This document shows positions 4,320 through 43,587 of a DNA stretch of 43,587 nt, piece by piece. The stretch is from sequence record NC_027993.1; one strand, written 5' to 3'. A model generated the notes under the pieces. That model was not told where the DNA came from. It was given only the letters and a program-made list of their open reading frames with translations, and ran no database searches. Source of the DNA: Escherichia phage K1G. A program made the translations under genes and the position numbers. How positions within the stretch are numbered: the stretch's first letter is position 1; each line of letters opens with the position of its first letter.

Positions 4320-4324
4320 ACTGA

Positions 4325-4344
4325 AGCCCCGAAAGGGGCTTTTT
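4325..4344 (+). terminator. rho-independent terminator
   Basis: AGCCCC-GAAA-GGGGCT hairpin followed by TTTTT. Confidence 0.7.
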
Positions 4345-4408
4345 AGTGCCTGTGATTATTCCAGTTATTCCACTCAATTGTAAATGTTGGAATAAACTAT
4401 TCGAATAG

Positions 4409-4437
4409 TTGACTTTTCACCAAAAATGTGCTAAGCT
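4409..4437 (+). promoter_or_regulatory. sigma70-like promoter TTGACT-N17-TAAGCT with TGn extension; -35 overlaps 16-bp perfect palindrome AACTATTCGAATAGTT (4395-4410)
   Basis: hexamers and spacing read directly; -10 is weak (3/6) but preceded by TG. Confidence 0.45.
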
Positions 4438-4617
4438 CCACCTGAGCTTGTGAAGTATGAACAAGCGACCGCGGCGCGGGCAGGTAACGGAGCGGGACGT
4501 AAGTCCTGAGTGTAGTTACGCTGACGCGTTCGGAAGGGCCATAGTCTATCGCTTGTGTAAAAAAGTAACTGGTTTACTGAGATTACGCCGTTTCTATGTT
4601 TAAATGATAAGGACTAG

Positions 4618-4640
4618 CGCCCCGCTTTATGGCGGGGCTT
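4618..4640 (+). promoter_or_regulatory. leader hairpin GCCCCGC-TTTATG-GCGGGGC (possible attenuator or processing site) just upstream of spanin RBS
   Basis: 7-bp GC stem followed by short TTTA; same hairpin in reverse orientation at 36779-36798. Confidence 0.4.
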
Positions 4641-4662
4641 TACTTATCGAGAAAGGAGAAAC

Positions 4663-5049
4663 ATGAATCTTAACGCAACTGTCGTAGCAGGAGCATGTTT
4701 CATCCTCCTGACATACGGCTACGGAATCTACCAGTATCGCAGCGGCTGGAACGAAGGCCGGGCGAATCTCGTTTCGCAGCAACAGCAGAAAGCACAGGCT
4801 GAGTTAGCGAAGAAAACACAACGGCAGCAGCAGGATGAATCAAAGGCCGCAGCCGCTGACAACGAAGGCAAGACGAAATCAGAGGTGATCACACGTGAAG
4901 TCGTTAAGTACATTAAAACGCCTGGTCGCAGCGTGTGCGCTTTTGACCCTGAGCGCGTGCAGCTCAAGTCCCGCGCCGTCGCAAACGCCAATTCCATCCC
5001 CGGATACGACGATGATGCAGCCGCCGTGCAAACTGGCGCCGCCAAGTAG
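4663..5049 (+). CDS. i-spanin (Rz-like)
   Basis: 128 aa; N-terminal TM segment VVAGACFILLTYGYGIY, Gln/Ala-rich coiled-coil periplasmic region; RBS AAGGAG; embedded out-of-frame lipoprotein ORF. Confidence 0.65.
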   Translation: MNLNATVVAGACFILLTYGYGIYQYRSGWNEGRANLVSQQQQKAQAELAKKTQRQQQDESKAAAADNEGKTKSEVITREVVKYIKTPGRSVCAFDPERVQLKSRAVANANSIPGYDDDAAAVQTGAAK

Positions 5050-6994: not shown

Positions 6995-7010
6995 GGTTAA
7001 GATATAATCG

Positions 7011-7037
7011 AGAGGGACTTCGGTCCCTCTTTTCATT
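7011..7037 (+). terminator. rho-independent terminator
   Basis: AGAGGGAC-TTCG-GTCCCTCT hairpin (UUCG tetraloop) followed by TTTCATTT. Confidence 0.7.
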
Positions 7038-12302: not shown

Positions 12303-12328
12303 AAGGCCCCGTTTGGGGCCTTTTTCTT
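12303..12328 (+). terminator. rho-independent terminator (convergent junction)
   Basis: AAGGCCCC-GTTT-GGGGCCTT hairpin then TTTCTT; reverse complement of the hairpin at 24829. Confidence 0.7.
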
Positions 12329-15306: not shown

Positions 15307-15671
15307 ACGCGCTGTACAGGTTCGCCACCTATGAGTTTGTGGATAAGCATAAAATCAGAGAGTTTGATTCTATAGCCGACGGACACGAACAGGCGCTTAT
15401 CGCGATGGGTGTAATCGATAAGAAAAAACGTGCAGCGCGACGGGGTGGGCCAGAATGCCCGCCCCTTTTTATATCCACCTTCGAGACGTACTGCGACATT
15501 AAGTTTACGCGACACGTGCGCGAGGACGCTGTAGTATTGTTCGCAAGAGAATCCGTTACGTGGCAAGACCTGAAAGCCTATCTCGATGTTACGCAAAAAC
15601 AGCTTAGCCTGTTCGAGATAGACATTATCATGGGCTTAGAAGCAATCTTTGAAGGTAGAAATCATGGCTGA
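14890..15671 (+). CDS. putative G-T fusion via -1 frameshift near 15298-15304
   Basis: -1 frame is open from 15282 to 15671 and overlaps tape measure start; slippage candidate GAA AAG UAG (Lys tRNA AAG to AAA next to stop). Confidence 0.4.
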
Positions 15672-21869: not shown

Positions 21870-24824
21870 ATGTCAAGCGGATGTGGTGACGTTTTAAGCC
21901 TGGCGGATTTACAGACCGCCAAGAAGCACCAGATTTTTGAAGCCGAGGTTATCACGGGTAAATCCGGCGGAGTAGCCGGGGGCGCAGATATTGATTACGC
22001 GACAAACCAGGTTACAGGGCAGACCCAGAAGACACTACCTGCCGTGTTGCGTGACGCTGGTTTTAAACTGGCAGATTTTGATTTCACGTCAGGCGGTACA
22101 CTATCCGCTAACGACCGAAACACCGCAGTTTTGTGGCCGTCGTCCTCTGGCGGTGACGGGGATTGGTACTATTGGTTGGGTGCTCTACCAAAAATTATCC
22201 CGGCGTCATCTTCTCCGCAGTCCACCGGTGGCGTGGCAGATGGGGCGTGGCAGCCTGTCGGGTCGGTCATACTGCGGCAGCAAATATCTGATGTAAACGG
22301 TGCAATTCTGTACCCAGATTTACATGTGGCGCGATGGAAGGACGAATACGACCCGCGCGCATGGGGCGCCGTGGGCGACGGCGTAACTGATGATACTCAA
22401 TCTATTTTTAATGTATTAGCAGCTTCCCCCAACAATTGGATTATAGACGGCAGGGGTTTGACTTATAAAGTTTCCCAATTACCTGACATTAGTAAATTTA
22501 AGAATGCTGCATTCGTTTACGAGCGCGTAGCCGGGCAACCGCTTACTTATGTAGCTGATGGCTTCTTTAACGGTTCACTAACTAAGGTGACGGATACCCC
22601 GTTCTACAACGCATGGACGCAGGATAAAACTTTCGTCTACGACCATGTTATTTACGCCCCGTTTATGGCGGGCGAACGACATGGTGTTCAAAACTTACAT
22701 GTAGCTTGGGTTCGCTCTGGAGACGACGGGCAGACTTGGTCAATGCCTGAGTGGTTGACTCCAATCCATGCTGACTATAATGCTAGTGTTTCTACGGACA
22801 GAGTTAACTACCACTGCATGAGCATGGGTACGTGCGGCAACCGATTATATGCAGTTATAGAAACCCGCTACTTATCTAATATGCGGATGAAGAAGGCAGA
22901 ACTTTGGTCACGCCCAATGCCGTATTTTAGACACCCAACCGGCGGAATAACTATTAGTTCTGGCTCCACTACTGCTACCATTGTCATAGAAAATCATGGC
23001 CTAAAAGCAGGAGATGCGGTTAACTTCTCTAATACATCGGCAACTGGCGTATCGGGTAATATGACGGTTTCGTCTATAATTAACCGAAATACGTTCACTG
23101 TTACGCTCTCAAGCCCGGCGAGTTCCACCATAAACAATGCGGGTGTTACCTGGAACTTCGCAACGCGATTCTGGGACAGCCCGTGGGAAATTACCGAATT
23201 GCCTGGGGTAGCATACTCCACTAACGCTGATTTGTGTGTCACGGAGACACATAGTTTTGCGGTTATAGATGATGTTAACTACACTATCGCTGTCGGCTAT
23301 CACAACGGCGATGTGTCCCCTAGGCGTCTCGGTGTCTTGTATTTTAGTAACGTGTATGACAATCCTGGCGTATTCGTTCGTCGCACTGTCGCTCAGGCAT
23401 ACGCTGATAACGCTTCTGAGCCGTGCGTGAAAAGTTATGGTGGTGTGTTATACCTTACCACACGCGGCACATTACCTACTTCCCCTGGCTCTACACTGGC
23501 GATGAGCACCGATTCTGGGCAAAACTGGAGCTACTTGCGATTTCCGAACAATGTACATCACTCCAATCTTCCGTTCGCTAAAGTAGGTGACTATCTCTAC
23601 ATCTTTGGTACAGAACGTGCCTTTGGTGAGTGGGAAGGTGGCGAGCAGGACAGCCGCTATGAAGGTTCGTATCCGAGGACCTTTATGTGCAAAGTTAATG
23701 TGTCGTCCTGGCCTTCATCTTTAGATGATGTTCAGTGGTTTAATATTACCGACCAAATATACCAGGGTCATATCGTTAACTCTGCTGTCGGCGTCGGCTC
23801 GGTCTGTGTTAAAGATGGCTGGTTGTACTATATCTTTGGTGGGGAAGACTTCTTCTCTCCCTGGAGCATAGGGGATAACAGTGCGAAGTTATGGTACAAA
23901 CATGATGGGCATCCGGCTGACTTATATAGCTACCGGATAAAGATTGAAGACCACCCGTACGTATCACGTGATTTCAAATACGGAGCAACTCCTAACCGTA
24001 CAATACCTGTCGCCATGGGGGTAGATGGTGTACGCCATGTAGAAGCACCTTTAACGTTTGACAATGATGTAAGCGTGTACTCCCTGCATGTAACGGGGCT
24101 GGAATACGATGGTACACAACAGTCTGCCGTGCGCGCACGGTTTGATGGTGATTACGGGCTGATTTCAAAAACAGTCCCCACTAAAACCCCATCGGCTCAA
24201 AGACTGATAGTTAGCGGTGGTGATGGCGCATCCAGTTCCGATGGTGCGTTGCTGCAACTGTACGGGGCAAACCATGCAACGCCTAACAGGGCTATTATGT
24301 ATGCGTCAGGAGGCTTCTACTCATACAACAATTTCCTTCCTTACTTAGACTCGCAAGTGTCTTTAGGTTCGGCAGGTAATAGGTGGACTACGGTGTACGC
24401 GACCACCGGTACGATAAACACGTCTGATGGTACACTTAAGACGAACAAAGAGGAAATTGAGGGACAACTCCTTACCGCATGGGAAGATATACATGTAATA
24501 TCTTTTAAGTGGCTTGAAAGCCTAGCAATCAAGGGTGACACTGCAAGGATACACTTCGGTGTGATAGCCCAAGATGTGCGAGACATCTTGGTCAACCATG
24601 GGCTTATGGAGAAAGATTCTACCAGTTGTAAATATGCTTTCTTGTGCTACGACTCAATTGAAGCTGCGTATGATATTGATGAAGATGGCCAGACTGTACA
24701 AGTATCCCCTCCCGGCGGCAGATGGGGAGTTAGGGCGGACCAGATGTTCTTCATAGAGATTGCCTATCAGCGTAAGAAGATGCGCGAGTTCGAGAAGAGG
24801 CTGGCAGCACTAGAAGATAAATAA
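21870..24824 (+). CDS. endosialidase tailspike (endo-N-acetylneuraminidase) with C-terminal intramolecular chaperone domain
   Basis: 984 aa; Asp-box motifs SGDDGQTW and STDSGQNW; long stretches matching recalled K1F-type endosialidase (e.g. GDGVTDDT, NYHCMSMG, HNVHHSNLPFAKVGD, ARIHFGVIAQDVRD); RBS AAAGAGGA. Confidence 0.85.
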   Translation: MSSGCGDVLSLADLQTAKKHQIFEAEVITGKSGGVAGGADIDYATNQVTGQTQKTLPAVLRDAGFKLADFDFTSGGTLSANDRNTAVLWPSSSGGDGDWYYWLGALPKIIPASSSPQSTGGVADGAWQPVGSVILRQQISDVNGAILYPDLHVARWKDEYDPRAWGAVGDGVTDDTQSIFNVLAASPNNWIIDGRGLTYKVSQLPDISKFKNAAFVYERVAGQPLTYVADGFFNGSLTKVTDTPFYNAWTQDKTFVYDHVIYAPFMAGERHGVQNLHVAWVRSGDDGQTWSMPEWLTPIHADYNASVSTDRVNYHCMSMGTCGNRLYAVIETRYLSNMRMKKAELWSRPMPYFRHPTGGITISSGSTTATIVIENHGLKAGDAVNFSNTSATGVSGNMTVSSIINRNTFTVTLSSPASSTINNAGVTWNFATRFWDSPWEITELPGVAYSTNADLCVTETHSFAVIDDVNYTIAVGYHNGDVSPRRLGVLYFSNVYDNPGVFVRRTVAQAYADNASEPCVKSYGGVLYLTTRGTLPTSPGSTLAMSTDSGQNWSYLRFPNNVHHSNLPFAKVGDYLYIFGTERAFGEWEGGEQDSRYEGSYPRTFMCKVNVSSWPSSLDDVQWFNITDQIYQGHIVNSAVGVGSVCVKDGWLYYIFGGEDFFSPWSIGDNSAKLWYKHDGHPADLYSYRIKIEDHPYVSRDFKYGATPNRTIPVAMGVDGVRHVEAPLTFDNDVSVYSLHVTGLEYDGTQQSAVRARFDGDYGLISKTVPTKTPSAQRLIVSGGDGASSSDGALLQLYGANHATPNRAIMYASGGFYSYNNFLPYLDSQVSLGSAGNRWTTVYATTGTINTSDGTLKTNKEEIEGQLLTAWEDIHVISFKWLESLAIKGDTARIHFGVIAQDVRDILVNHGLMEKDSTSCKYAFLCYDSIEAAYDIDEDGQTVQVSPPGGRWGVRADQMFFIEIAYQRKKMREFEKRLAALEDK

Positions 24825-24828
24825 AACT

Positions 24829-24854
24829 AAGGCCCCAAACGGGGCCTTTTCTCT
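24829..24854 (+). terminator. rho-independent terminator (convergent junction, bidirectional)
   Basis: AAGGCCCC-AAAC-GGGGCCTT hairpin then TTCTCT. Confidence 0.7.
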
Positions 24855-24990
24855 ACTCTTCTGATAGCTTCTCCAGTACAAACGCCAGTTGCGCATTAGC
24901 GGCGTCTCTTTGCTGTCGTAGTCGTAGAACCTCTTCTTCGAGTTCCTTGATACGTTTTTGCAATGCGGGAATCGGGGCTATGACGTTCAT
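24853..24990 (-). CDS. small coiled-coil protein (45 aa)
   Basis: ATG overlaps stop of upstream gene (ATGA); sequence MNVIAPIPALQKRIKELEEEV... Confidence 0.3.
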   Translation of the reverse strand: MNVIAPIPALQKRIKELEEEVLRLRQQRDAANAQLAFVLEKLSEE

Positions 24991-25172
24991 TTCTTACCTT
25001 CGCTTTTCTTGAAACTGCGCTTTATATCCGGCAGAGTGTAGCATCGTGAATTTTCGTACTTACCGTCCGAGCTTACCAAAACAAAGCTGTTGCCGTCTTT
25101 TGATATGTACTCGATGGTGAAAGTATTGAATGAATGTACGCTGTATATTTCGTCTCCAACATTAAGTTTCAT
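24987..25172 (-). CDS. hypothetical protein
   Basis: 61-aa ORF, start overlaps helicase stop. Confidence 0.45.
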   Translation of the reverse strand: MKLNVGDEIYSVHSFNTFTIEYISKDGNSFVLVSSDGKYENSRCYTLPDIKRSFKKSEGKK

Positions 25173-26593
25173 TTCTTACCTCGTCTCTTCATATAATTAA
25201 GCAACTCTTCTTGCACAGATTTCTTTTCGTCAGTACGCGCGGCGACAACCTCGTCCAGCGTGTCTTTAGCAACGATGTGGTACAGGAACACCGGCCTCTC
25301 GTGTCCTGCCTGTTTCTGGCGGACCGGGCCTATTCGCTCGACAACCTGCAAATAGTGCTCAAGGTTCCAGCCTTGCGAGATGAATGCCAGATGATGTCCG
25401 CCGTCCTGTAAATTCAAACCATGTCCGGCCGACGCAGGATGCACGCATAAGATTTCGATTTCGCCGCGGTTCCATGCTTCCATCTGCTTATTACCCTTAG
25501 CACCTTTCGCGAATGCCTGCGCCTGCGGGAAACGTTTCAGGATACGCTCCAGTTCGTGCTTGAACTGATAGGCTACCAGTAGCGGAGCACCCTGTAACTC
25601 CTCAACAATTGACTCCAGCGCATCCAGTTTCATGTCGTGCACTTTCTCCCAGTCTTTGGTTGCTTCTCCGTCTGGCCCTGATACATACACAGCACCAGAA
25701 GCAATCTGCAAACACTTTGACGTCTTTGCCGCGGCGTTAGCCGCTTCAACTTCTCCGCTTTCCAGTTCCGCGAATAACTTTTCCTCCATATCGATGTACG
25801 CCTGACGCGCTTTCTTCGGCAGATCTATTTCAACCGGCACTATAATAGGCGCTTCACAACCGAACCACTCAGCGGCGTCAATCGTGAGACTAATGTCCTT
25901 CATCTTCTGGTGGATCTCATTATCTGCACCAGGACGCGCATGATACTCCCGCGCCATCGCCGACTTACCTTTTTGCACAGAGTTGAACCAGCGGTCGGTG
26001 AACGCAGTGTACGATGAACCGAGGCGCTCGCCAGCGTCGATAAACCAGTTCTGGCCCCACAGGTCTTTGAGGCCGTTAGGCGACGGTGTGCCCGTCAGAT
26101 TGATGAAACGCTTAACTTTACCGAACGCCACTTTGCTGAGCGCCTTTGCCCGCTTGCTACCACCAGAACGGCTACGGAATGACTTCAGTTTCGTACTCTC
26201 ATCTGCAACGATAACCGTAAAAGGCCAGTCGTCTTTGCCGTAGTAGTCAATCAGCCACTCGATAACTTCGTAGTTGGTACACACCACGTTAACATCTGAC
26301 TCCAGCGCCGCGATGCGGCGTTTCTCTGAACCTGTCGCATCTACGACACGCAGGCACGGGAATCGCCATTTCTCTTGTTCTGCCGGCCATGTACCTGATG
26401 CAACGCGCAACGGGGCGAGAATTAACACGCGGTCGTCGTCCGTAAGTTGCCCGTTGCGGAACAGGCGGTTTAAAGTCCACAGGACGCTGCCAGTCTTCCC
26501 GGCGCCCATGCTCGCCCAAATATTACAGCGATGGTGTTGCAGCATGAACGAAGTCATGAGCTTCTGGTATTCGCGCCTTTGAAACTTACTCAT
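25169..26593 (-). CDS. SNF2-family DNA helicase/ATPase
   Basis: motif I GAGKTG, motif II DESTKL, LTGTP; 474 aa. Confidence 0.8.
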   Translation of the reverse strand: MSKFQRREYQKLMTSFMLQHHRCNIWASMGAGKTGSVLWTLNRLFRNGQLTDDDRVLILAPLRVASGTWPAEQEKWRFPCLRVVDATGSEKRRIAALESDVNVVCTNYEVIEWLIDYYGKDDWPFTVIVADESTKLKSFRSRSGGSKRAKALSKVAFGKVKRFINLTGTPSPNGLKDLWGQNWFIDAGERLGSSYTAFTDRWFNSVQKGKSAMAREYHARPGADNEIHQKMKDISLTIDAAEWFGCEAPIIVPVEIDLPKKARQAYIDMEEKLFAELESGEVEAANAAAKTSKCLQIASGAVYVSGPDGEATKDWEKVHDMKLDALESIVEELQGAPLLVAYQFKHELERILKRFPQAQAFAKGAKGNKQMEAWNRGEIEILCVHPASAGHGLNLQDGGHHLAFISQGWNLEHYLQVVERIGPVRQKQAGHERPVFLYHIVAKDTLDEVVAARTDEKKSVQEELLNYMKRRGKK

Positions 26594-27410
26594 TTACGGC
26601 CCCCATAAACGCCTTTATAAATTCGGCGGCTACTTGCGGGACGATGGCATTGCCGTAACCGCGCAATCGTCCCACTCTTGCGGGTATCCCATTAGCCAGC
26701 GGGAATGCGCCGGGTTCAACCGGCCGGAACTTTCCATCACGGCATCCGAGCCAGTCAGCATCTGACCAGAAGCCGTGGTGCGGGTTGGTTGACTCGCTTT
26801 CAATCCCTGCTCTGTTGAGTAGTCCAGCCTGTCGAATGTTCTGTCCCTCCCGTCCGTGCGAATCACTGTCTCTCCGCTCCCTCTGAAGTCGTTCGCTGTC
26901 GGTGTAGGCCAGTTCGTGCGCGCCAAAGAAGAGTCGTTCTCTTTTGTGCGGTGCGCCGACGCTACAAGCTGGGAGTACAGCAAACCCGACGGCGTAGTCT
27001 TCTCCTTCCAGGTGAGCTTGTAAATCGCACATCCACGATTTTGCAATTGCTGCCGCAACCTGCTCCCCAAAGATGACTGGAGGGCGGCACTCGCTGATGA
27101 GGTCGAGGAAGACCGGCGCGAGGTGTCTCGGGTCGAACTGTCCGAGTTGCTTTCCCGCCGCGCTAAACGGTTGGCAAGGCGGGCTTCCCGTCCAGAGAGG
27201 CGCATCTTCCGGAACTCCCGCAAGTCTGAGCGCGAGAGGCCAGCCGCCGATACCCGCGAAAAAATGACACTGGGTGAACCCGTCAAGGTCTTCTGGCTTA
27301 ACTTCGGTAATGCTTCTTTCATCTACAACTCCAAAAGGTATGTGACCCTGTTTTATCAACTCACGCAGCCACGCGGCTGCGCCTTTATCCCATTCATTGT
27401 AATAGTTCAT
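26586..27410 (-). CDS. DNA (cytosine-5)-methyltransferase
   Basis: motif I FFAGIGGW, motif [19 protein letters not shown] (ENV-like), C-terminal GYGNAIVP. Confidence 0.8.
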
Positions 27411-27598
27411 TTCGCCACCAGAACTAACTCTTTACGCCCGAACGCCGTAACGTTACCGGTTACATCTTCGATAACCAGTTTACCGTTCGACTCGACGAAC
27501 ACCGTATCAACGGCAACAGGTTGACGTGTCTTAACGTTGAAAATCATGTCACCCGGTACGATGTCACGTGCTGGTTTGCGGTCATATTCGTGTTTCAT
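27407..27598 (-). CDS. hypothetical protein
   Basis: 63 aa, RBS AAGGAA, first gene downstream of promoter at 27632-27660. Confidence 0.5.
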   Translation of the reverse strand: MKHEYDRKPARDIVPGDMIFNVKTRQPVAVDTVFVESNGKLVIEDVTGNVTAFGRKELVLVAK

Positions 27599-27628
27599 TT
27601 CTCAATTCCTTATATTGTTGGTGTAGGA

Positions 27629-27913
27629 CTAACTATAATAGCTAGCTATTAGGTCGTCAACCTGTTTAAACGAACCAACGACAAAAACATTCGCACCACG
27701 TTTACGCATCCGCTCATGTTCCCGTAGCTGGTGCGGGTCTGGCTTCGTGTTCTCGTCTTTCTTAACCTCGACGAACCAGACTATGCCGCCGGGGAGAATT
27801 ACCAGCAGGTCTGGGGCGCCGGAACGCCCCTCGTAGGAGAGTTTGCGAACGAGGCCGCCAAGGGCCTCGAATCGGTCTTTTGCGTATTTCTGTACGCGGC
27901 CCTCTTTAGTCAT
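27629..27913 (-). CDS. VRR-NUC domain nuclease
   Basis: PD-(D/E)xK signature GAPDLLV...VEVKK; ATG at 27913 overlaps upstream stop. Confidence 0.6.
   Translation of the reverse strand: MTKEGRVQKYAKDRFEALGGLVRKLSYEGRSGAPDLLVILPGGIVWFVEVKKDENTKPDPHQLREHERMRKRGANVFVVGSFKQVDDLIASYYS
27632..27660 (-). promoter_or_regulatory. early promoter TTGACG-N17-TATAGT (family 1) with 16-bp perfect palindrome TAATAGCTAGCTATTA in spacer
   Basis: read on minus strand: TTGACGacctAATAGCTAGCTATTATAGTT. Confidence 0.6.
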
Positions 27914-28062
27914 GAGCGTAGATCCCAAGTAAGGAAAGCCCCTCCTAGAACGGCGACACCGACAAACTTAAAGAACAGGCCGTAACAGAACATCGCGGCT
28001 ATTCCTGCACCGAGTAGCAGTGCGAGCATGGTTACTATCACCCGAAATACGAACATTGTCAT
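27910..28062 (-). CDS. small membrane protein (50 aa, 2 predicted TM)
   Basis: strong RBS GGGAGGGG 9 nt upstream of ATG; hydrophobic MTMFVFRVIVTMLALLLGAGIAAMF... Confidence 0.4.
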   Translation of the reverse strand: MTMFVFRVIVTMLALLLGAGIAAMFCYGLFFKFVGVAVLGGAFLTWDLRS

Positions 28063-28144
28063 AATACGCACCCCTCCCGTTTGGTATGCTCAATTCCGCA
28101 GCGCGGGCAGATTCGACAGTCTTCTTCATAAAACCAGTAAATTT

Positions 28145-28276
28145 TCATTCCAGCACCCACAGATAAATTGCGATGAACATGCCCAATATGGCAACCATCA
28201 TGCCGTATTGACCCTCGTGACAGTAGACACCGGCAGCAAATCCCGCCAGTACCGCGATAATCAGTTTACTTGGCAT
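28145..28276 (-). CDS. small membrane protein (43 aa)
   Basis: ATG overlaps 3' end of polymerase gene; hydrophobic sequence MPSKLIIAVLAGFAAGVYCHEGQYGMMVAILGMFIAIYLWVLE. Confidence 0.3.
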   Translation of the reverse strand: MPSKLIIAVLAGFAAGVYCHEGQYGMMVAILGMFIAIYLWVLE

Positions 28277-30446
28277 AACGCTTCATCTCCGCGCCTTCTG
28301 CTACAAGAGGGAACCCCTCGGCCCACTCTGGTAATTCGCACATCAATCGTTCCAGTTCTGCGACATTGTATTCTGGTAAATCTGGTGTCTCGCAGATAAT
28401 CTCATCGTGAACATGAAGCACAATCGGGTAGCCGTTTGCTTCGACGTTCAGCAGTGCATTAGCCAACAAATCACGGCACAGCGCCTGAGTGCAGTTTTCC
28501 ACCAGTTTACCAGAGTAGGTGTACTGGAAGCCCCACTGACGGGTTAACTGGTTTTCGCCCTGGTACTTGATGCGCACGTTGGTAGACACCTTCCCGTCTT
28601 CGTCTGTCTCTTTCGACACGCTTAGCCCAACACCCGGATAAGACATAACGCGGCCCGACGGCAACGTCATCCGCAACCACCAACCGGCGACTTTGTTGCC
28701 GTTGTTGTCCGTTTCTACGTTGCGCGAAAACTTAACTCCCCGCGGCCCTGCGGTGAACTCTTTGCCCGGATTGCGGATAGCTGCCATAGCTGCGTCTTCA
28801 ATATCCCGCCAGAAAGCTACTGTTTCCGGGTGTGACTCACGCCACATACGCTTGATAGCGTCGCAGGTACGCCACACTTTCTTATCAAGAATATAAGATG
28901 GTCGGTCATCATTTTCACCTGGACGTGGTGGTCGCTTGGCTTCCTGAATACGCGCCCACTCATATCCACGTGCGGTAGCAGCCCAGATGTAGTCGGGGAA
29001 AGTCCCGTCCATTGTTTTTGCCATATCAACGAGGTCAAGGCCGAGGTTCTTGGCGAACTGTACGAATGCGCCGACACCACCCGCGTAGCCAAGTCCAAGT
29101 TCGCATGCCTTACCAATCTGGCGTAAGTCTTTACGTTCTTTCTTAATGTAATCCGGCTCCATGCCGAACATCTTGCCTGCGGTTACGCAGTAAATATCCA
29201 GCCCGGCACGGAACGTATCAAGCGCGGTTTCTTCGCCAGCCAGCCACGCCAAACCGCGGCCTTCAACGTTCGAGTAGTCGGCGACGACAAACTTATGTCC
29301 GGCTTCCGGGATAATGCAGCTGCGAACCGTAGATGCCGTTAGCTTGGCTACATCAAAACGGCGATGTGCTCGGCCCTTAAGTAATGCTGAAATACCTTTA
29401 TCCAGTTCATCATCGTGATAGTACCCACGCGCCAGGTTCTGCGGCTGGAAGCCTTTACCCGCAAATCGTAACGTACGTTTAGCTCCACCATACTGGATGC
29501 AACCGCGACGGCGGTCGTCAGACGAGCGGCCTAACAGCAGCGGGTTATATTTCGTTGACGCAGTGGATGCCGCCCCGAGGCGCATTTCTATAATCGTGCG
29601 GGCGTCGTCCGGTAAATCATCGTCAGCAAGCAGGTCGTTAAGCGTAGACTTCTGCGCGTTGTGGATGCGATGCGCAGGTGCCAGTTCACGCAGAATCGGC
29701 AGGAAGTCCTTACCTGTAAGCGAGCCGCCGTATTTACGTTGGGCTTCTTCCTGTAACTGTGCCTTGTGTTTCTCCACAGCTTCAATTGCGGCTTCCGCCA
29801 GCGCAACGTCGACCTTAAACCCGCGGTCGTTAATTAACTGGTCCAGTTCCAGTACACGGTCTTCGAACTCGGAGTTACCCCAACGCGGCAACTTATGGAA
29901 CACTTCACGCATCGCGGTGATGTCGCTAACGGCGTACTTGATGAACAGCGCCCACTCATCCGGGTGCGTTTCAGCAGTGTAGCGGCGAATTTTGTAGTTC
30001 TTCGGCGTCGGTTTAGAGAAACGCTGAATAAGCGCTTTGCCTCGTTTGTCTTTCGCGTTGTCTGCAGACACGCCAAGCACTTCGCACAATGCGTCGAGTG
30101 AACCCGGCAGCGCGTGACGAAACGCCCAAATCATCGTATCAATGGTGTTGCTTACGGGAATATCAAAACCCCAGCAGTGCTTCATGATGAGTCTGTCGAA
30201 CATTGAGCCGTTGTGCCACACCATCTTAATACGGCTGTTTGGTTTCACCAGACGGCGTAACGCGCGGTGCAAATCACCCGGCATGTCGCTGCCGTTGGTG
30301 CAATCCCATACCTGCACAGGCTCGTCGTCAAAAGCATATGTGCAGATTAGAACTTCGGTGGTTGGATGTTCGGCGTAAGCGTAGGAGCCGACTTTCTTCA
30401 AATCGGCTTCGGAGAATGTTTCAAAGTCTAAGAACAGGTAACTCAT
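28266..30446 (-). CDS. family-A DNA polymerase with 3'-5' exonuclease domain
   Basis: N-terminal Exo I motif FLDFETFS, C-terminal motif C HVHDEIICE; 726 aa. Confidence 0.85.
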   Translation of the reverse strand: MSYLFLDFETFSEADLKKVGSYAYAEHPTTEVLICTYAFDDEPVQVWDCTNGSDMPGDLHRALRRLVKPNSRIKMVWHNGSMFDRLIMKHCWGFDIPVSNTIDTMIWAFRHALPGSLDALCEVLGVSADNAKDKRGKALIQRFSKPTPKNYKIRRYTAETHPDEWALFIKYAVSDITAMREVFHKLPRWGNSEFEDRVLELDQLINDRGFKVDVALAEAAIEAVEKHKAQLQEEAQRKYGGSLTGKDFLPILRELAPAHRIHNAQKSTLNDLLADDDLPDDARTIIEMRLGAASTASTKYNPLLLGRSSDDRRRGCIQYGGAKRTLRFAGKGFQPQNLARGYYHDDELDKGISALLKGRAHRRFDVAKLTASTVRSCIIPEAGHKFVVADYSNVEGRGLAWLAGEETALDTFRAGLDIYCVTAGKMFGMEPDYIKKERKDLRQIGKACELGLGYAGGVGAFVQFAKNLGLDLVDMAKTMDGTFPDYIWAATARGYEWARIQEAKRPPRPGENDDRPSYILDKKVWRTCDAIKRMWRESHPETVAFWRDIEDAAMAAIRNPGKEFTAGPRGVKFSRNVETDNNGNKVAGWWLRMTLPSGRVMSYPGVGLSVSKETDEDGKVSTNVRIKYQGENQLTRQWGFQYTYSGKLVENCTQALCRDLLANALLNVEANGYPIVLHVHDEIICETPDLPEYNVAELERLMCELPEWAEGFPLVAEGAEMKRYAK

Positions 30447-31185: not shown

Positions 31186-31214
31186 ACTATAATAGCTAAC
31201 TATTCGGGTGTCAA
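31186..31214 (-). promoter_or_regulatory. early promoter TTGACA-N17-TATAGT (family 1)
   Basis: minus strand TTGACAcccgAATAGTTAGCTATTATAGTT; near-palindromic AATAG-N4-CTATT. Confidence 0.6.
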
Positions 31215-33334: not shown

Positions 33335-33363
33335 ACTATAATAGCGAACTATTCACTTGTCAA
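33335..33363 (-). promoter_or_regulatory. early promoter TTGACA-N17-TATAGT (family 1)
   Basis: minus strand TTGACAagtgAATAGTTCGCTATTATAGTT. Confidence 0.6.
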
Positions 33364-36798: not shown

Positions 36799-37042
36799 GC
36801 TAAATAGTACTCTTGGTAACGTTAGTATCTAAGTTTCCTCAAAGTAACAGCAAGTGGCAAGAAAGCCCCCGTCTATTTAAATTTTACCCTCCTTCATAAG
36901 CCACTGATAATTAAAAGTTTCTATAGTTGCCGTAAACGTGGAAGAGAGTACTTCACTTCGCTGGGGTGGGCTAACGCCCACCCACTGCGTTGCGTACTCT
37001 TTTAAGAAACGAAAGAATCACAACGGCAACGTAACTATTCTC

Positions 37043-37071
37043 TTGCACACCCCAACATAATAGGATACTAT
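37043..37071 (+). promoter_or_regulatory. early promoter TTGCAC-N17-TACTAT (family 2)
   Basis: cTTGCACaccccaacatAATAGGATACTATTcac. Confidence 0.5.
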
Positions 37072-37096
37072 TCACTTATCGAAACGAGACAGAGGA

Positions 37097-38365: not shown

Positions 38366-38394
38366 TTGCACACTAAGATAGAATAGGCTACTAT
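38366..38394 (+). promoter_or_regulatory. early promoter TTGCAC-N17-TACTAT (family 2)
   Basis: cTTGCACactaagatagAATAGGCTACTATTcat. Confidence 0.5.
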
Positions 38395-38425
38395 TCATTT
38401 ACACAAACGAGAGGAGAGACGGAAG

Positions 38426-39607: not shown

Positions 39608-39916
39608 TTGGATAAATTTACTGAAACAGTGACGGGGTGGCTTCTCGCCGCCGCACTGGTCGGTGGATTGGTCGGGCTAAGACAACATAAAAAGTCTATA
39701 TCCGGGCCGATTGACGGACTGGTATTTCTTCTCACCGGCTTCGCGTGTGCTATTTTCGGTGCACCTCTTGCCGCTCAATGGTTCGGTATTACCGGTGAGC
39801 GTGAGATAGCTGGCCTCGGATTCATCATTGCCATTCTCTGGATGCCTATCTATTCCCGCCTTTCTGGCATCGTATCGGGTGGCGATATTGCCCGCCCAGG
39901 AGGACCGCATGACTGA
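39608..39916 (+). CDS. holin candidate (TTG start)
   Basis: 102 aa with 2-3 hydrophobic helices; RBS GGAGGA 6 nt upstream of TTG; immediately upstream of endolysin cassette. Confidence 0.5.
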   Translation: MDKFTETVTGWLLAAALVGGLVGLRQHKKSISGPIDGLVFLLTGFACAIFGAPLAAQWFGITGEREIAGLGFIIAILWMPIYSRLSGIVSGGDIARPGGPHD

Positions 39917-40181
39917 GCTATTCTGGTTTGTCACAATGCTTTCAATGGGCGCTTCGTCCCTGTTCAACGTGTATAATGAACGCGTGGACGACGGGCTGTT
40001 CGGGCGTGTTCTCTATATCCTGACTGCTATCGTCTGTGCCGCCGGATGTGTTCACCTGTTACAGGGCAGCATGTCGCCTACGCTGCCTGAGACATTAATC
40101 ACATTAGTCGCGCTGCGCCAGATTCGCCAGGCGTGGCTGTCATACGGAGGACATAAGCGTGTCTCGAAATATTTCAGATAA
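39909..40181 (+). CDS. second holin-like membrane protein (holin/antiholin)
   Basis: ATG 39909 with RBS AGGAGG; two hydrophobic segments; overlaps neighbours. Confidence 0.5.
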   Translation: MTELFWFVTMLSMGASSLFNVYNERVDDGLFGRVLYILTAIVCAAGCVHLLQGSMSPTLPETLITLVALRQIRQAWLSYGGHKRVSKYFR

Positions 40182-40644
40182 TGGATTGCATTTCTGTGCC
40201 GCGTTCGAGGGATTCCGCGGAACTGCGTATCGCGCTACGCCGAATGAGAAGTATCTTACTATTGGCTACGGTCACTACGGGCCAGACGTAACACCAGGTA
40301 AGACCATCACACCAGGACAGGGCTTGCTGTTACTGAATCGCGATATGGCTAAGGCTGTAGCTGCTGTTGACGCAGCAGCACACCATTCGCTTACACAGGC
40401 ACAGTTCGATGCGGTGTGTGACCTGGTCTATAACGTGGGGGCTGGCGTGATTTCGGCTACTACCGGTACAGGTAAGGCACTGCGCTCCGGTGATATCGCG
40501 ACGTTACGGGCTAAGCTGGCGCTGTTCATCAACCAGAACGGCAAACCACTACTTGGCCTGCGTCGCCGTACAGCCGGGCGTCTGGCGCTGTTCGACGGTA
40601 AACCGTGGCAAGAGGCTGAGGCTATCGGTAGGGCGGTTAAATGA
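40159..40644 (+). CDS. endolysin, T4-lysozyme-like (GH24), GTG start
   Basis: AAFEGFRGTAY...TIGYGHYG catalytic-region motif; RBS ACGGAGGA. Confidence 0.8.
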   Translation: MSRNISDNGLHFCAAFEGFRGTAYRATPNEKYLTIGYGHYGPDVTPGKTITPGQGLLLLNRDMAKAVAAVDAAAHHSLTQAQFDAVCDLVYNVGAGVISATTGTGKALRSGDIATLRAKLALFINQNGKPLLGLRRRTAGRLALFDGKPWQEAEAIGRAVK

Positions 40645-41778: not shown

Positions 41779-41947
41779 ACCCGTAGTTATCGATGGCGTC
41801 CTGTGGAAACCATACTCGGTTAACCACATCGACGCCGACGGGAAGAAGTTCAGCTTCTACATTTTTGCAATTAGCCGTGAGCACGCCGCTTGTGTGGTCG
41901 ACGATATACGAGAAACGGCGTGGCTCGGTGATGAGATAGTGGGGTGA
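41765..41947 (+). CDS. hypothetical protein
   Basis: 60-aa ORF in coupled series. Confidence 0.45.
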   Translation: MKAPEPVVIDGVLWKPYSVNHIDADGKKFSFYIFAISREHAACVVDDIRETAWLGDEIVG

Positions 41948-42180
41948 GTATGTTTCACGAACTGAAGATATTACCTGATCATTTTGAGCCTGTTATGGCG
42001 GGAATCAAGCGGGCGGAACTTCGATTAAACGACCGCGACTTTAAGGAATATGACACTCTGTGCCTGCGAGAATACGAAAACGGTGAGTACACAGGCCGTA
42101 TCGTTTACCGCCGCATCATTCATGTTGCGGACGTAGGGGCTTACCTACCAGGGTACGTGCTATTAAGTATGGAGGGTTGA
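41944..42180 (+). CDS. ASCH/PUA-like (DUF3850-like) protein
   Basis: HELKILPDHFEPVMAGIKRAELRLNDRDFKEYDTLCLREY matches recalled DUF3850 pattern. Confidence 0.5.
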   Translation: MSMFHELKILPDHFEPVMAGIKRAELRLNDRDFKEYDTLCLREYENGEYTGRIVYRRIIHVADVGAYLPGYVLLSMEG

Positions 42181-42275: not shown

Positions 42276-42435
42276 CATTAATGCGGCAATCGAAGAAGCA
42301 ATCTGGCGACGCTACAACGGTGAGCAACAACGGCACTTCTGCCTGGTGCAACGCGGAAACATGATTGCTGTGGTACAGGACCGTGATAATAAATATCCGA
42401 ATGCGATGTGGACAACGAGGAATTTCTTAGGATGA
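42241..42435 (+). CDS. hypothetical protein, start uncertain (TTG/GTG)
   Basis: ORF-track ORF; no ATG start. Confidence 0.35.
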   Translation: MGLCGVETVFSDINAAIEEAIWRRYNGEQQRHFCLVQRGNMIAVVQDRDNKYPNAMWTTRNFLG

Positions 42436-42668
42436 TTACCAGCATTCCGAACCTGATTAAAGAATTTGGCACGATGGCGGAGACATGCCGACAAACCGGC
42501 ATCAACGAAATGACGATTGCGAAGTACAGCAAAGACGTCGATTGTGAACGCCATGTAATTTATAACAATCGTCTGATGACGCACGTTAAGACAAGCCCGG
42601 TGTTATTCACGCGCCGGGGTATTACTAAAACAGAGCAACGTATTGCTAAAGAGGAGAGTGGGGAATGA
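42432..42668 (+). CDS. hypothetical protein with HTH-like segment
   Basis: ATG 42432 with RBS GAGGAA; TCRQTGINEMTIAKYSKD. Confidence 0.45.
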   Translation: MITSIPNLIKEFGTMAETCRQTGINEMTIAKYSKDVDCERHVIYNNRLMTHVKTSPVLFTRRGITKTEQRIAKEESGE

Positions 42669-42823
42669 TTAGTATTCTGGAGTTCATCGACAACCAAGTT
42701 TGGTACGAGCCAGAGTTAAATAAGTATTCAGTTAATGGGAAAATATTTCGGCGCAAAGGCCAGGCAGAGCGTTACGCAGCTAAACTATACCGCCAGCTTG
42801 TCAAGGATGGTTTCTTCAAATGA
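42665..42823 (+). CDS. small hypothetical protein (52 aa)
   Basis: ATGA overlap with upstream gene. Confidence 0.4.
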   Translation: MISILEFIDNQVWYEPELNKYSVNGKIFRRKGQAERYAAKLYRQLVKDGFFK

Positions 42824-42925
42824 GACTACTAATCATCCCTAACGCCTGGGCCATTCCCGTAGCTAACGACCATTACGGCGGCGACGGTAAAAGAGCACCA
42901 CGCCACGGCCTATACAACTGATACA

Positions 42926-42949
42926 AGCCCTCTACCGAGGGCTTTTCTG
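42926..42949 (+). terminator. rho-independent terminator ending the early rightward operon
   Basis: AGCCCTC-TACC-GAGGGCT hairpin followed by TTTCTGT. Confidence 0.6.
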
Positions 42950-43042
42950 TACATCCCGCCCAATCCCCTTATATAATCCCTTTAGACGCGTAGGGCGCGT
43001 CTGATGCGCTCTGATGGTCAGACGCATATGCAAGGGGATTCT

Positions 43043-43587
43043 ATGAAGCTGAAACTCAAGCAGCCATCGCCAGAGGTGGTGCAAGCTGCACATGAAGAAG
43101 CTGTTAGCGCAAACCGCCGACGTAAACGACCGCGCGGTAAACAGAGCCTTTATCAATCGTCCCGTAATTCCGCAGCGTTGTGGGACCCGGACTATTGCGA
43201 CGAATTAATTCGTTTCTTCGACCGCACGTCATGGGAGGCTATGCCGACAGGAGCGCACGGAGACTACAAAGCAGTCATTGCGGATAAACCGCCATCACTG
43301 GCTCGCTTCGCCTTACACATCGGTGTAACTATCCCGATTATTAAGCTGTGGCTGCGTGAGATTCCCGCATTTGCAGAAGCCTATGAAACAGCACAGGCGC
43401 TGGAAGAGGCATATTTCACTGAGACAGGGGCCGCGGGCATCTCGGCTACATTTGCTGCCGCTAAGCTGAGCCTCGGCAAAGAGAAACCAGTTGAATCCAC
43501 CGAAGAAACGGCACCGACCGAGATTATTTTTAGTGTTGCAGAGCCTGTAGGTAAAATTGTAACAACGAATATGGGTGAGGTAGAGGA
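43043..43587 (+). CDS. putative terminase small subunit, 3' end runs off window (continues into position 1-4 if circularised)
   Basis: RBS AGGGGA; 181 codons open to the window end; last partial codon GA + A(1) then TGA(2-4) overlapping terL ATG; position upstream of terL. Confidence 0.55.
   Translation, partial: MKLKLKQPSPEVVQAAHEEAVSANRRRKRPRGKQSLYQSSRNSAALWDPDYCDELIRFFDRTSWEAMPTGAHGDYKAVIADKPPSLARFALHIGVTIPIIKLWLREIPAFAEAYETAQALEEAYFTETGAAGISATFAAAKLSLGKEKPVESTEETAPTEIIFSVAEPVGKIVTTNMGEVE

Follow-up and report, generated by a model that had tools for sequence, protein, structure and literature searches.

Escherichia coli mRNAs are stabilized when a stem-loop lies no more than a few nucleotides from their 5' terminus, and Emory, Bouvet and Belasco are said to have described such 5'-terminal stabilizing stem-loops, of the type found in the ompA 5' untranslated region (5' UTR), in 1992. 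The pac sites of headful phages often lie in or adjoining terS, the small terminase gene, as they do in P22 and SPP1. The boxA of the lambda nut sites reads CGCUCUUA. The put RNAs of phage HK022, putL and putR, are antiterminator transcripts that bind the zinc-binding domain of the RNA polymerase beta' subunit and suppress terminators in cis. The putL element of HK022 forms two stem-loops from about +3 of a sigma-70 promoter and has a weak -10-like hexamer inside it, and put RNA is about 70 nt long, with long bulged stems and an RNA triplex (PMC9378689). The subject of this work is the sequence directly in front of terS in Escherichia phage K1G (NC_027993.1). The window we analyzed is the whole of that record, 43,587 bases, and it is a complete Kagunavirus genome (subfamily Guernseyvirinae). 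We conclude that positions 42925-43042 are a transcription-unit boundary, made up of an intrinsic terminator, a host sigma-70 promoter and a structured leader of about 60 nt that heads the operon of terS, terL and the structural genes. The leader belongs to a familiar kind, that of structured 5' leaders acting in cis, but as a motif it is undescribed. It is not a put element, a nut site or a member of Rfam, it is not mentioned in the literature we searched, and its promoter and terminator are ordinary. The comparisons below indicate that its RNA structure is under purifying selection, with invariant loops. The explanation we favor overall, at a probability of roughly 0.7, is a boundary with a promoter and a cis-acting leader of two hairpins which would stabilize the transcript and gate the Shine-Dalgarno (SD) sequence of terS.

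It is useful to say at the start how this leader compares with the systems above. Its two hairpins, which we call HP1 and HP2, are one base apart and in RNAfold make up the first 44 nt of the predicted transcript. As with ompA-type stabilizers, there is a hairpin at or near the predicted 5' end of a long mRNA and its distance from the -10 is constrained. Such stabilizers need no set loop or second hairpin, however, whereas the loops, closing pairs and spacing of this leader are invariant across genera. The likeness to put of HK022 is that both are two stem-loops one base apart which begin within the first nucleotides after a sigma-70 promoter, for the leader counted from the predicted transcription start (PMC9378689). 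Both also have a weak -10-like hexamer inside the element, and both head a long operon that contains terminators. But the leader, at 44 nt and with short regular stems, has no similarity to put in sequence or structure, and put belongs to the early operons of a temperate lambdoid phage while the leader belongs to the packaging and structural operon of virulent siphoviruses. Lambda nut sites, which serve N antitermination, are like it in having a small hairpin, with a loop of 5 nt, close to where an operon begins, and in the window CGCUCUGA (43007-43014) resembles boxA. That string is paired inside HP2, comes after the hairpin rather than before it, and is not conserved, other sequences having CGCUAUGA, GUUGCCGA and others in its place. 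The loops YAGGG and UGG are also unlike the GAAAA or GACAA of boxB, and no N-like gene is annotated in the relative Bas73. The lambdoid late promoter PR', which works with Q and a sigma-dependent promoter-proximal pause, resembles it in being a constitutive-looking sigma-70 promoter that heads a late operon and has a -10-like hexamer in the first stretch to be transcribed, but here there is no evident Q gene or Q-binding element, the hexamer is at +30 and not at +1 to +15, and no terminator follows the leader. Two resemblances were rejected outright: that to boxA, which is found in Kagunavirus only, inside HP2 and downstream of HP1, and one to the RfaH ops element, which covers 6 of 12 positions by eye and is again found in Kagunavirus only.

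For the comparison within the Guernseyvirinae, 50 loci were fetched via the TerS protein and 45 distinct upstream regions were aligned. In these the sequence 5' of the terminator is mosaic, with differing genes, and the stretch from the terminator to the terS ATG is conserved. A blastn search with the 141-bp region alone reached Cornellvirus-like Salmonella phages (TS6, SE1 and FSL SP-049) whose TerS shares only some 29% identity. The same plan came to light, on looking at distant TerS homologues, in a Dhillonvirus (phage rolling), Serratia phage Smarc3 and Edwardsiella phage eiAU. Scanning IMG/VR and metagenomes for the exact anchors added another three lineages, D, L219 and L247, on contigs of uncultured viruses or from metagenomes. 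The metagenome matches listed gave at least one of these added lineages (L247) and further copies of known ones. The plan precedes terS in at least nine lineages: the Kaguna-, Jersey-, Cornell-like, Dhillon- and Eiauviruses, Smarc3, and the three uncultured ones. It is shared across at least six genera with one copy per genome, and it always stands directly 5' of a terS from one homologous family (25-29% identity, with a shared central region resembling a helix-turn-helix). A scan of 100,044 bacterial and archaeal genomes returned 40 pattern matches, all in unrelated taxa and none with the hairpins, and no prophage copies.

The plan itself is simple to state. An intrinsic terminator is followed by TATAATC, and 4-9 nt later comes HP1 with a stem of 4-8 bp and the loop YAGGG. 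Another 1-4 nt leads to HP2, which has a lower stem, a bulge or internal loop of varying side, and an upper stem that ends in G-A..U-C and closes on the loop UGG. From HP2 it is 4-12 nt to the SD, and then terS begins. The distance from the loop of HP1 to that of HP2 is 19 nt (18-20) throughout, and the two hairpins are the minimum-free-energy (MFE) structure in every lineage folded on its own.

The evidence that carries our argument is the covariation of these stems. Gapless alignments anchored on the loops (A3 and A4) hold 26 distinct sequences of HP1 and 14 of the HP2 upper stem. HP1 is 93.4% paired against 62.1% when shuffled, with a covariation of 0.808 against 0.240, and all seven of its pairs have changed on both sides. 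The HP2 upper stem is 98.6% paired against 75.2%, with a covariation of 0.598 against 0.135, three of its pairs covarying and two being invariant. These values were reached by 0 of 500 shuffles for either hairpin, counts that are not to be read as probabilities since the aligned sequences are related. Slid registers of HP1 give at most 52% pairing, and the slid-register controls taken together reach at most 52-60%. The GGG of the HP1 loop is invariant and the A before it is present in more than 90% of the sequences, and GAUGGUC is invariant in HP2. The HP1 arms are found as AGACGCG/CGCGUCU, AGGUGCG/CGCGUCU, AGAUGG/CCGUCU, AAAGGCC/GGCUUU and GGCGGGC/GUCCGCC, and the Jerseyvirus type reads AGACGCU-CAGGG-GG(C/U)GUCU, with two pairs turned into U.G or G.U. 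The HP2 upper stem occurs as UCUGA/UCAGA, UAUGA/UCAUA, GCCGA/UCGGC, UGGA/UCCA and GUGUGA/UCACAC, and also as UACCGA with its exact complement. The lower stem is likewise preserved with differing sequences, its bulge switching side between lineages.

An alignment by the covariance model as a whole (A2, 56 hits) is 86.8% paired against 69.2%, with a covariation of 0.461 against 0.183 and again 0 of 500 shuffles, although HP1 is partly mis-registered in it. We dropped it for the anchored alignments because the 3' arm of HP1 is out of register in Dhillonvirus and eiAU, which is also why RNAalifold recovers from it the HP2 upper stem only.

The kind of change is as informative as the amount. Among cells that are not Watson-Crick pairs, 25 are G.U and 2 are A.C, and read on the + strand the sequences are 94.8% paired compared with 85.7% on the - strand. 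Compensatory changes together with G.U but almost no A.C place the constraint on base pairing in the sense-strand RNA; a DNA palindrome, a cruciform or the antisense strand would not be expected to give such an excess of G.U. This asymmetry is independent of sequence kinship, and so is a control on the length of pairing runs. Matches to the anchor pattern TATAATC..AGGG..GATGGTC that are linked to terS all have at least 4-8 consecutive pairs in HP1 and 4-7 in HP2. Matches to the same pattern in unrelated DNA, which take in 28 sites that passed the pairing filter among the 40 bacterial and archaeal ones, have at most three consecutive pairs in HP1, and none has four in both hairpins.

These results change how the letters in front of terS should be read. 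The first-pass annotation of this sequence had listed TATATAAT at 42970-42977, an inverted repeat of AGACGCG and CGCGTCT around TAGGG, and repeats of CTGATG and CAGACGC. Sequence reading and a repeat search find all of these in place, the repeats being (T)CTGATG at 43000-43006 and 43010-43016 and (T)CAGACGC at 43018-43025. It took the palindrome for a possible activator site, that is, for an operator or activator-binding sequence in the DNA at a late promoter. A perfect 7-bp inverted repeat beside a promoter invites that idea, and the weak -35 makes an activator conceivable, but the repeat lies at +1 to +19 rather than upstream. Being downstream of the -10, it is therefore transcribed. Its arms differ wholly by lineage (AGACGCG, AGAUGG, AAAGGCC, GGCGGGC) while their complementarity is retained, and the intermediates are G.U pairs, which in the logic of DNA half-sites are A.C mismatches. 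The extended -10 of Dhillonvirus should not need an activator either. We find a DNA operator here scarcely credible. The idea of CTGATG as a conserved direct repeat also has to be given up: the two copies are TCTGATG/TATGATG in Jerseyvirus and TCTCATG/TTATGATG in Cornell-like phages, and they are absent in Dhillonvirus. In the Jerseyvirus type the second CTGATG and the CAGACGC after it change jointly (UCUGA/UCAGA to UAUGA/UCAUA), so the element is the hairpin at 43004-43027 and not a direct repeat, and the two strings are in fact the arms of HP2. The features of the boundary as we now read them are collected in Table 1.

Table 1. Features of the boundary in front of terS in the K1G window (SD, Shine-Dalgarno sequence; HP1 and HP2, the leader hairpins)
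Feature	Positions	Strand	Details
Intrinsic terminator of the upstream accessory and lysis operon	42925-42950	+	stem AAGCCCUC / GAGGGCUU, loop UACC, then UUCUGU
-35-like hexamer TGTACA	42948-42953	+	4 of 6 matches; overlaps the end of the terminator U-tract
-10 TATAAT	42972-42977	+	within TATATAAT (42970-42977); an invariant C follows
Anti-SD segment AAUCCCUUU	42975-42983	+	second copy AAUCCCCUU at 42962-42970; inverted-repeat search
Predicted transcription start	42983-42985	+	about 7 nt past the -10, at the base of HP1; placed from the -10 position
HP1 RNA hairpin	42984-43002	+	AGACGCG (42984-42990) / CGCGUCU (42996-43002), loop UAGGG
HP2 RNA hairpin	43004-43027	+	lower stem AUGCG/CGCAU (43004-08 / 43023-27), bulge C43009, upper stem UCUGA/UCAGA (43010-14 / 43018-22), loop UGG (43015-17)
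terS SD AAGGGGA	43032-43038	+	4 nt past HP2 and 4 nt before the ATG; unpaired in the fold begun at the predicted transcription start
terS	43043-43587	+	181 aa; ATG at 43043; crosses the record end; TGA overlaps the terL ATG (ATGA) at position 1

The terS product matches PHROG 3064, terminase (E 1.7e-69), and the terL product matches Terminase_6N/6C. Since the record opens at the terL ATG and terS crosses the record end, the site studied here is the last intergenic gap of a circularly permuted map, 5' of the packaging and structural genes. Over the last 1.2 kb the identity is 97.7% with Escherichia phage K1H and 93-97% with other K1-type and related coliphages. The claim of the first-pass annotation that the operon of terS, terL and the structural genes starts here is supported. 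It had added that the start lies directly after the terminator of the early operon, and of this the terminator stands, for an intrinsic one does adjoin the site, but the word early is imprecise since the upstream + strand operon has the holin and the endolysin. These lysis genes (39608-39916 and 40159-40644, from the annotation of the relative Bas73 and from PHROG) share that operon with the small early-looking open reading frames (ORFs) that precede terS, so the transcription map of the genome is not a simple early/late split.

The terminator was found by an inverted-repeat search and the MFE fold, its arms as DNA being AAGCCCTC and GAGGGCTT (42925-42944), followed by TTCTGT. It has the G+C-rich hairpin, the U-tract and the covarying stem of an intrinsic terminator. 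The stem is 8 bp long, and its final two bases are also U so that the tract reads UUUUCUGU. Within it CCCTC/GAGGG in Kagunavirus corresponds to CCCGC/GCGGG in Jerseyvirus and Cornell-like phages. An automated terminator scan did not list this site because that scan counts the U-tract after the longest stem.

The late promoter that had been suggested at this place has fared well. A promoter scan gave TGTACA-18-TATAAT, with 10 of 12 matches and a weak -35. The -10, TATAAT or TACAAT, is kept with its following C in nine lineages while the spacer and the -35 change; TATAATC is unchanged in eight of the nine and Jerseyvirus has TACAATC. Jerseyvirus has nonetheless retained the 18-bp spacing and TGTACA despite a diverged spacer sequence. 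Cornell-like phages and Smarc3 have TTGCCT-17 as an alternative -35, and Dhillonvirus has an extended -10 (TGTTATAAT). A near-consensus -10 is accompanied by a -35 at 16-18 bp or by an extended -10, as is characteristic of sigma-70 promoters, and TATA(TA)AT is, to judge from its sequence, very probably a promoter -10. The strongest promoters elsewhere in the window (TTGACA-17-TATAGT) carry the string GAATAGT and the terS promoter does not, so it is of a different class.

Transcription usually starts about 7 nt past the -10. In all architectures but one, the first paired base of HP1 is 4-9 nt past the -10, mostly 6-7, and so the start would fall at the base of HP1. The exception is eiAU, where the distance is 2 only when its stem is extended to 10 pairs. 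With a start at about 42984, HP1 would stand at the very 5' end of the RNA, preceded by 0-2 unpaired nucleotides. The sole Kagunavirus transcriptome paper gives time classes at the level of genes only, and in it the structural, lysis and NinH genes are all "middle" (PMC12645636).

Some observations come from the window by itself. In the RNAfold structure a U.G closure of HP1 leaves an AGG triloop, and an eighth pair, U42983.G43003, is optional. The covariance model, R1, has one match in the window at 80.9 bits, the runner-up scoring 9 bits. In Rfam 15 no relevant family matches 42700-43300 even with E allowed up to 10, and none reaches gathering score anywhere in the genome. AGACGCG occurs 9 times in the window where 8.4 copies are expected, so it is not enriched. 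An 8-bp complementarity, GCGTCTGA/TCAGACGC, joins 42997-43004 with 43018-43025, and TCAGACGC occurs 2 times against 1.6 expected. The hairpin this complementarity would form, which is exclusive with HP1 and HP2, was considered as a switch and rejected, as it has a central mismatch in Jerseyvirus and is absent in Cornell-like phages and Dhillonvirus.

The terS SD has potential partners upstream. Two copies of AATCCC(C)TT, AATCCCCTT (42962-42970) and AATCCCTTT (42975-42983), are complementary to the SD region AAGGGGATT (43032-43040), and the fold of 42920-43060 closes a stem between AAUCCCUUU and the SD around both hairpins. AAUCCCUUU is the end of the -10 and the discriminator, and therefore it is absent from RNA initiated at the promoter and present only in read-through transcripts. 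The duplex is strong in five lineages, at -9.4 to -10.8 kcal/mol, energies that no more than 0.2% of shuffles attain: Kagunavirus, Jerseyvirus, the Cornell-like phages (one sequence), lineage D and L247. The anti-SD segment co-varies with the SD, as CCCU:GGGG, UCCU:AGGA, CUCCU:AGGAG and CCUGA:UCAGG.

The mechanism we propose would work in cis and at the level of RNA. The 5'-terminal hairpins would shield the long late mRNA against 5'-end-dependent decay (RppH/RNase E), and in transcripts initiated at the promoter they would leave the terS SD free. In read-through transcripts AAUCCCUUU would pair with the SD and sequester it, so that terS translation would be tied to this promoter. The leader probably controls the fate of the packaging and structural-gene transcript. 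YAGGG, GAUGGUC and their spacing are invariant across genera with TerS at 25-29% identity, which points to a conserved partner. Candidates for it are the host RNA polymerase, the ribosome or some other host factor, and the terminase that is inherited along with the motif. We are quite confident of a promoter with a functional leader RNA structure. What the structure does is harder to say: within that reading we would tentatively put mRNA stability or translation gating forward, a role directed at RNA polymerase, through pausing or antitermination, is possible though doubtful, and a translational operator bound by a protein is quite unlikely, about as much weight as for the last being left for other roles.

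It is important to be clear about what weighs against our explanation. The distance from the -10 to the stem suits a 5' stabilizer, the 5' end itself being predicted, and for none of these phages did the literature we searched hold an experimentally mapped transcript 5' end. A pure stabilizer leaves the invariant loops, the G-A..U-C closing pairs and the second hairpin unexplained. Many of the aligned sequences are close kin, so the independent support amounts to about nine lineages and not 50 sequences. The fold of 42984-43060 has a z of -1.78, with 12 of 200 shuffles as good, which is marginal; that of 42920-43060, in which the terminator and the long-range stem are included, has a z of -4.07 and 0 of 200. 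As the counts in the window and the two-hairpin fold are near chance, the case rests on comparison and not on the window alone. Finally, Smarc3, eiAU and L219 have no anti-SD duplex, and that of Dhillonvirus is weak. Pairing that is missing in three lineages cannot be the core function, and we treat SD sequestration, as the sequences suggest it, as an accessory feature.

The strongest rival to our explanation is a function directed at RNA polymerase. The leader would then be an element like HK022 put, or a pause or loading site, and the nascent RNA would modify the host polymerase so that it reads through the intrinsic terminators within the late region of about 25 kb. The likeness to putL set out above, with two stem-loops one base apart from the predicted +1, is one reason to take this seriously. 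Invariant loops and a fixed spacing from the -10 would also be in keeping with a partner conserved to the degree that RNA polymerase is among Enterobacterales hosts. At +30 to +35, GATGGT has the bases that matter most in a -10 (nAnnnT). Between the 3' base of HP1 and the U-G of GAUGG there is a distance of 11-13 nt, as in hairpin-stabilized pauses; the G at -10 of the consensus elemental pause, on the other hand, is not conserved across lineages. Strong + strand terminator-like hairpins stand inside the operon at 2756-2771, 4619-4638, 7010-7031, 12303-12322 and 15442-15465, among other places past the portal gene and past the major capsid gene. The sequence read past 2756 and 7010 showed no promoter-like site, so the genes downstream of these two must depend on read-through. 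Leaky terminators after capsid genes are, however, common in phage late operons that have no antitermination. When R1 was run on HK022 24500-30100 (erf to gene O, where we expect PL and PR), the best score was 11.8 bits with an E of 0.077, while true members have at least 47 bits. The simple stems of 44 nt are also a long way from the bulged, triplex-containing put RNAs of about 70 nt (PMC9378689). On balance we consider a put-like or pausing element rather unlikely. We say the same of the bolder form of this idea, in which compact cis-acting RNAs of a new class would reprogram the polymerase of the host, perhaps with a sigma-70-dependent or hairpin-stabilized pause at GAUGGU; if true, it would let virulent siphoviruses with no known late regulator pass the intrinsic terminators in their late operon.

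Another alternative is that the hairpins are a translational operator, the terminase itself or a host RNA-binding protein binding the loops and setting the translation of terS. The motif is always directly 5' of one homologous terS family, its loops are invariant, and in the window the end of HP2 is 16 nt from the ATG, close enough for the 30S footprint to reach it. Yet HP2 leaves the SD unoccluded, and its distance to the SD and ATG is not constant (about 16 to 27 nt). We know of no documented RNA binding by small terminases. CsrA sites were considered and rejected, as the leader loops are without their GGA. The window has a small + strand ORF just 5' of the terminator (41944-42180) which encodes a putative RNA-binding protein of the DUF3850/ASCH domain, sporadic in Kagunaviruses and widespread in unrelated phages. 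It was rejected as a trans factor because it is found in 552 unrelated phage records and in few Kagunaviruses only, and it is not co-distributed with the motif. An operator of this kind seems improbable to us. A second + strand ORF just 5' of the terminator (42408-42668) encodes a weakly NinH-like protein (Fis-like, DNA-binding; PHROG 268).

The first-pass annotation had also offered a packaging signal. AGGG and GATGGTC, about two helical turns apart, would then be the pac site that TerS recognizes on the DNA. The position beside terS in headful-packaging phages is like that of pac in P22 gene 3 and of pacL/pacR in SPP1, the motif co-occurs with one terS family, and it does consist of short invariant motifs at fixed spacing. 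Relatives package by a headful mechanism (PMC10783031, PMC9022532), P1-like in one of them with the position not stated (PMC10783031), and their termini are random or undetected (PMC9409062, PMC9825357, PMC9022532). In particular, PhageTerm analyses of one Jerseyvirus and one Kagunavirus ended in random termini or none (PMC9409062, PMC9825357), which speaks against a pac site here. The known pac sites are motifs or repeats of duplex DNA with no covariation of the RNA type, while in the leader sequence AGGG and GATGGTC are conserved at fixed spacing and the intervening arms evolve as RNA helices. Recognition of duplex DNA leaves the compensatory changes in the arms and the 25:2 ratio of G.U to A.C unexplained. 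We had also considered the argument that different terS genes mean the motif is not pac, and dropped it because the TerS proteins of all lineages are homologous, with a shared core resembling a helix-turn-helix. A packaging signal is unlikely in our opinion, and at long odds.

The way these genomes have been deposited should not be mistaken for evidence on packaging. GenBank and IMG records of Jersey-, Kaguna- and Dhillonviruses often opened inside the leader, at the equivalents of window positions 42957-43004 (L026, L027, L036, L044, L047, L148, L159, L162, L163 and L051 among them), and the motif is therefore split across the record ends. SETP3-type records open at the equivalent of 43004, between HP1 and HP2. 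Dhillonvirus and SO-1-like records begin with the T of TATAAT, and five more start positions occur in others. Such record starts are an orientation convention and not a physical end (PMC9022532), and we rejected them as evidence for termini or pac. Annotators should not take record starts inside the leader for physical ends.

The expression of packaging and structural genes in small virulent siphoviruses of enterobacteria can, we believe, be approached concretely through this leader, which is easy to mutate. Phage therapy and engineering make wide use of the Kaguna-, Jersey- and Dhillonviruses and their relatives. To our knowledge their late expression is essentially unstudied, and none has an annotated late activator, Q or N. 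Should the leader prove to act on RNA polymerase, it would be only the second known type of protein-independent antiterminator RNA from phages. Should it act on mRNA stability or translation, phage and synthetic biology would gain a compact 5' UTR part of natural origin.

Three further observations concern other parts of the genome. The first is a gap of 345 nt in the structural block (4320-4665, + strand), which lies between a bidirectional terminator (4324-4341) and the terminator at 4619-4638. It has a promoter-like site of its own, TTGACT at 4410 with TAAGCT after 17 bp, preceded by the palindrome AACTATTCGAATAGTT. Its G+C-rich interior folds with a z of -2.26 and holds a 48-aa Arg-rich ORF (4457-4603). 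The gap is 95-99% identical in 177 of 179 phage records, 65 Salmonella phages included, and appears tighter than terS, which has about 80-85% amino-acid identity between the two genera. It has no Rfam match, and it could be an independent gene for a small RNA or a micro-protein.

The second concerns GAATAGT, which has 11 copies in the window against 4.4 expected, a number reached by 1 of 100 shuffles. Sites include 31186-31214 (-), 33335-33363 (-), 4396-4409, 37034-37073 and 38390-38396, and the string lies in the spacers of the strongest sigma-70-like promoters (TTGACA-17-TATAGT, 11 of 12 matches). A repeated motif found with PHIRE in Kagunavirus fBC-Eco01 was reported as 'phage promoters' (PMC9825357). 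GAATAGT appears to be that motif, although the phages themselves seem to lack an RNA polymerase. It probably marks a shared class of promoter or operator for replication and early genes.

The third is an identical bidirectional terminator of 20 nt, AAGGCCCCGTTTGGGGCCTT, which is found at both 12303-12322 and 24829-24848. Both sites are junctions of converging blocks of + and - strand genes.

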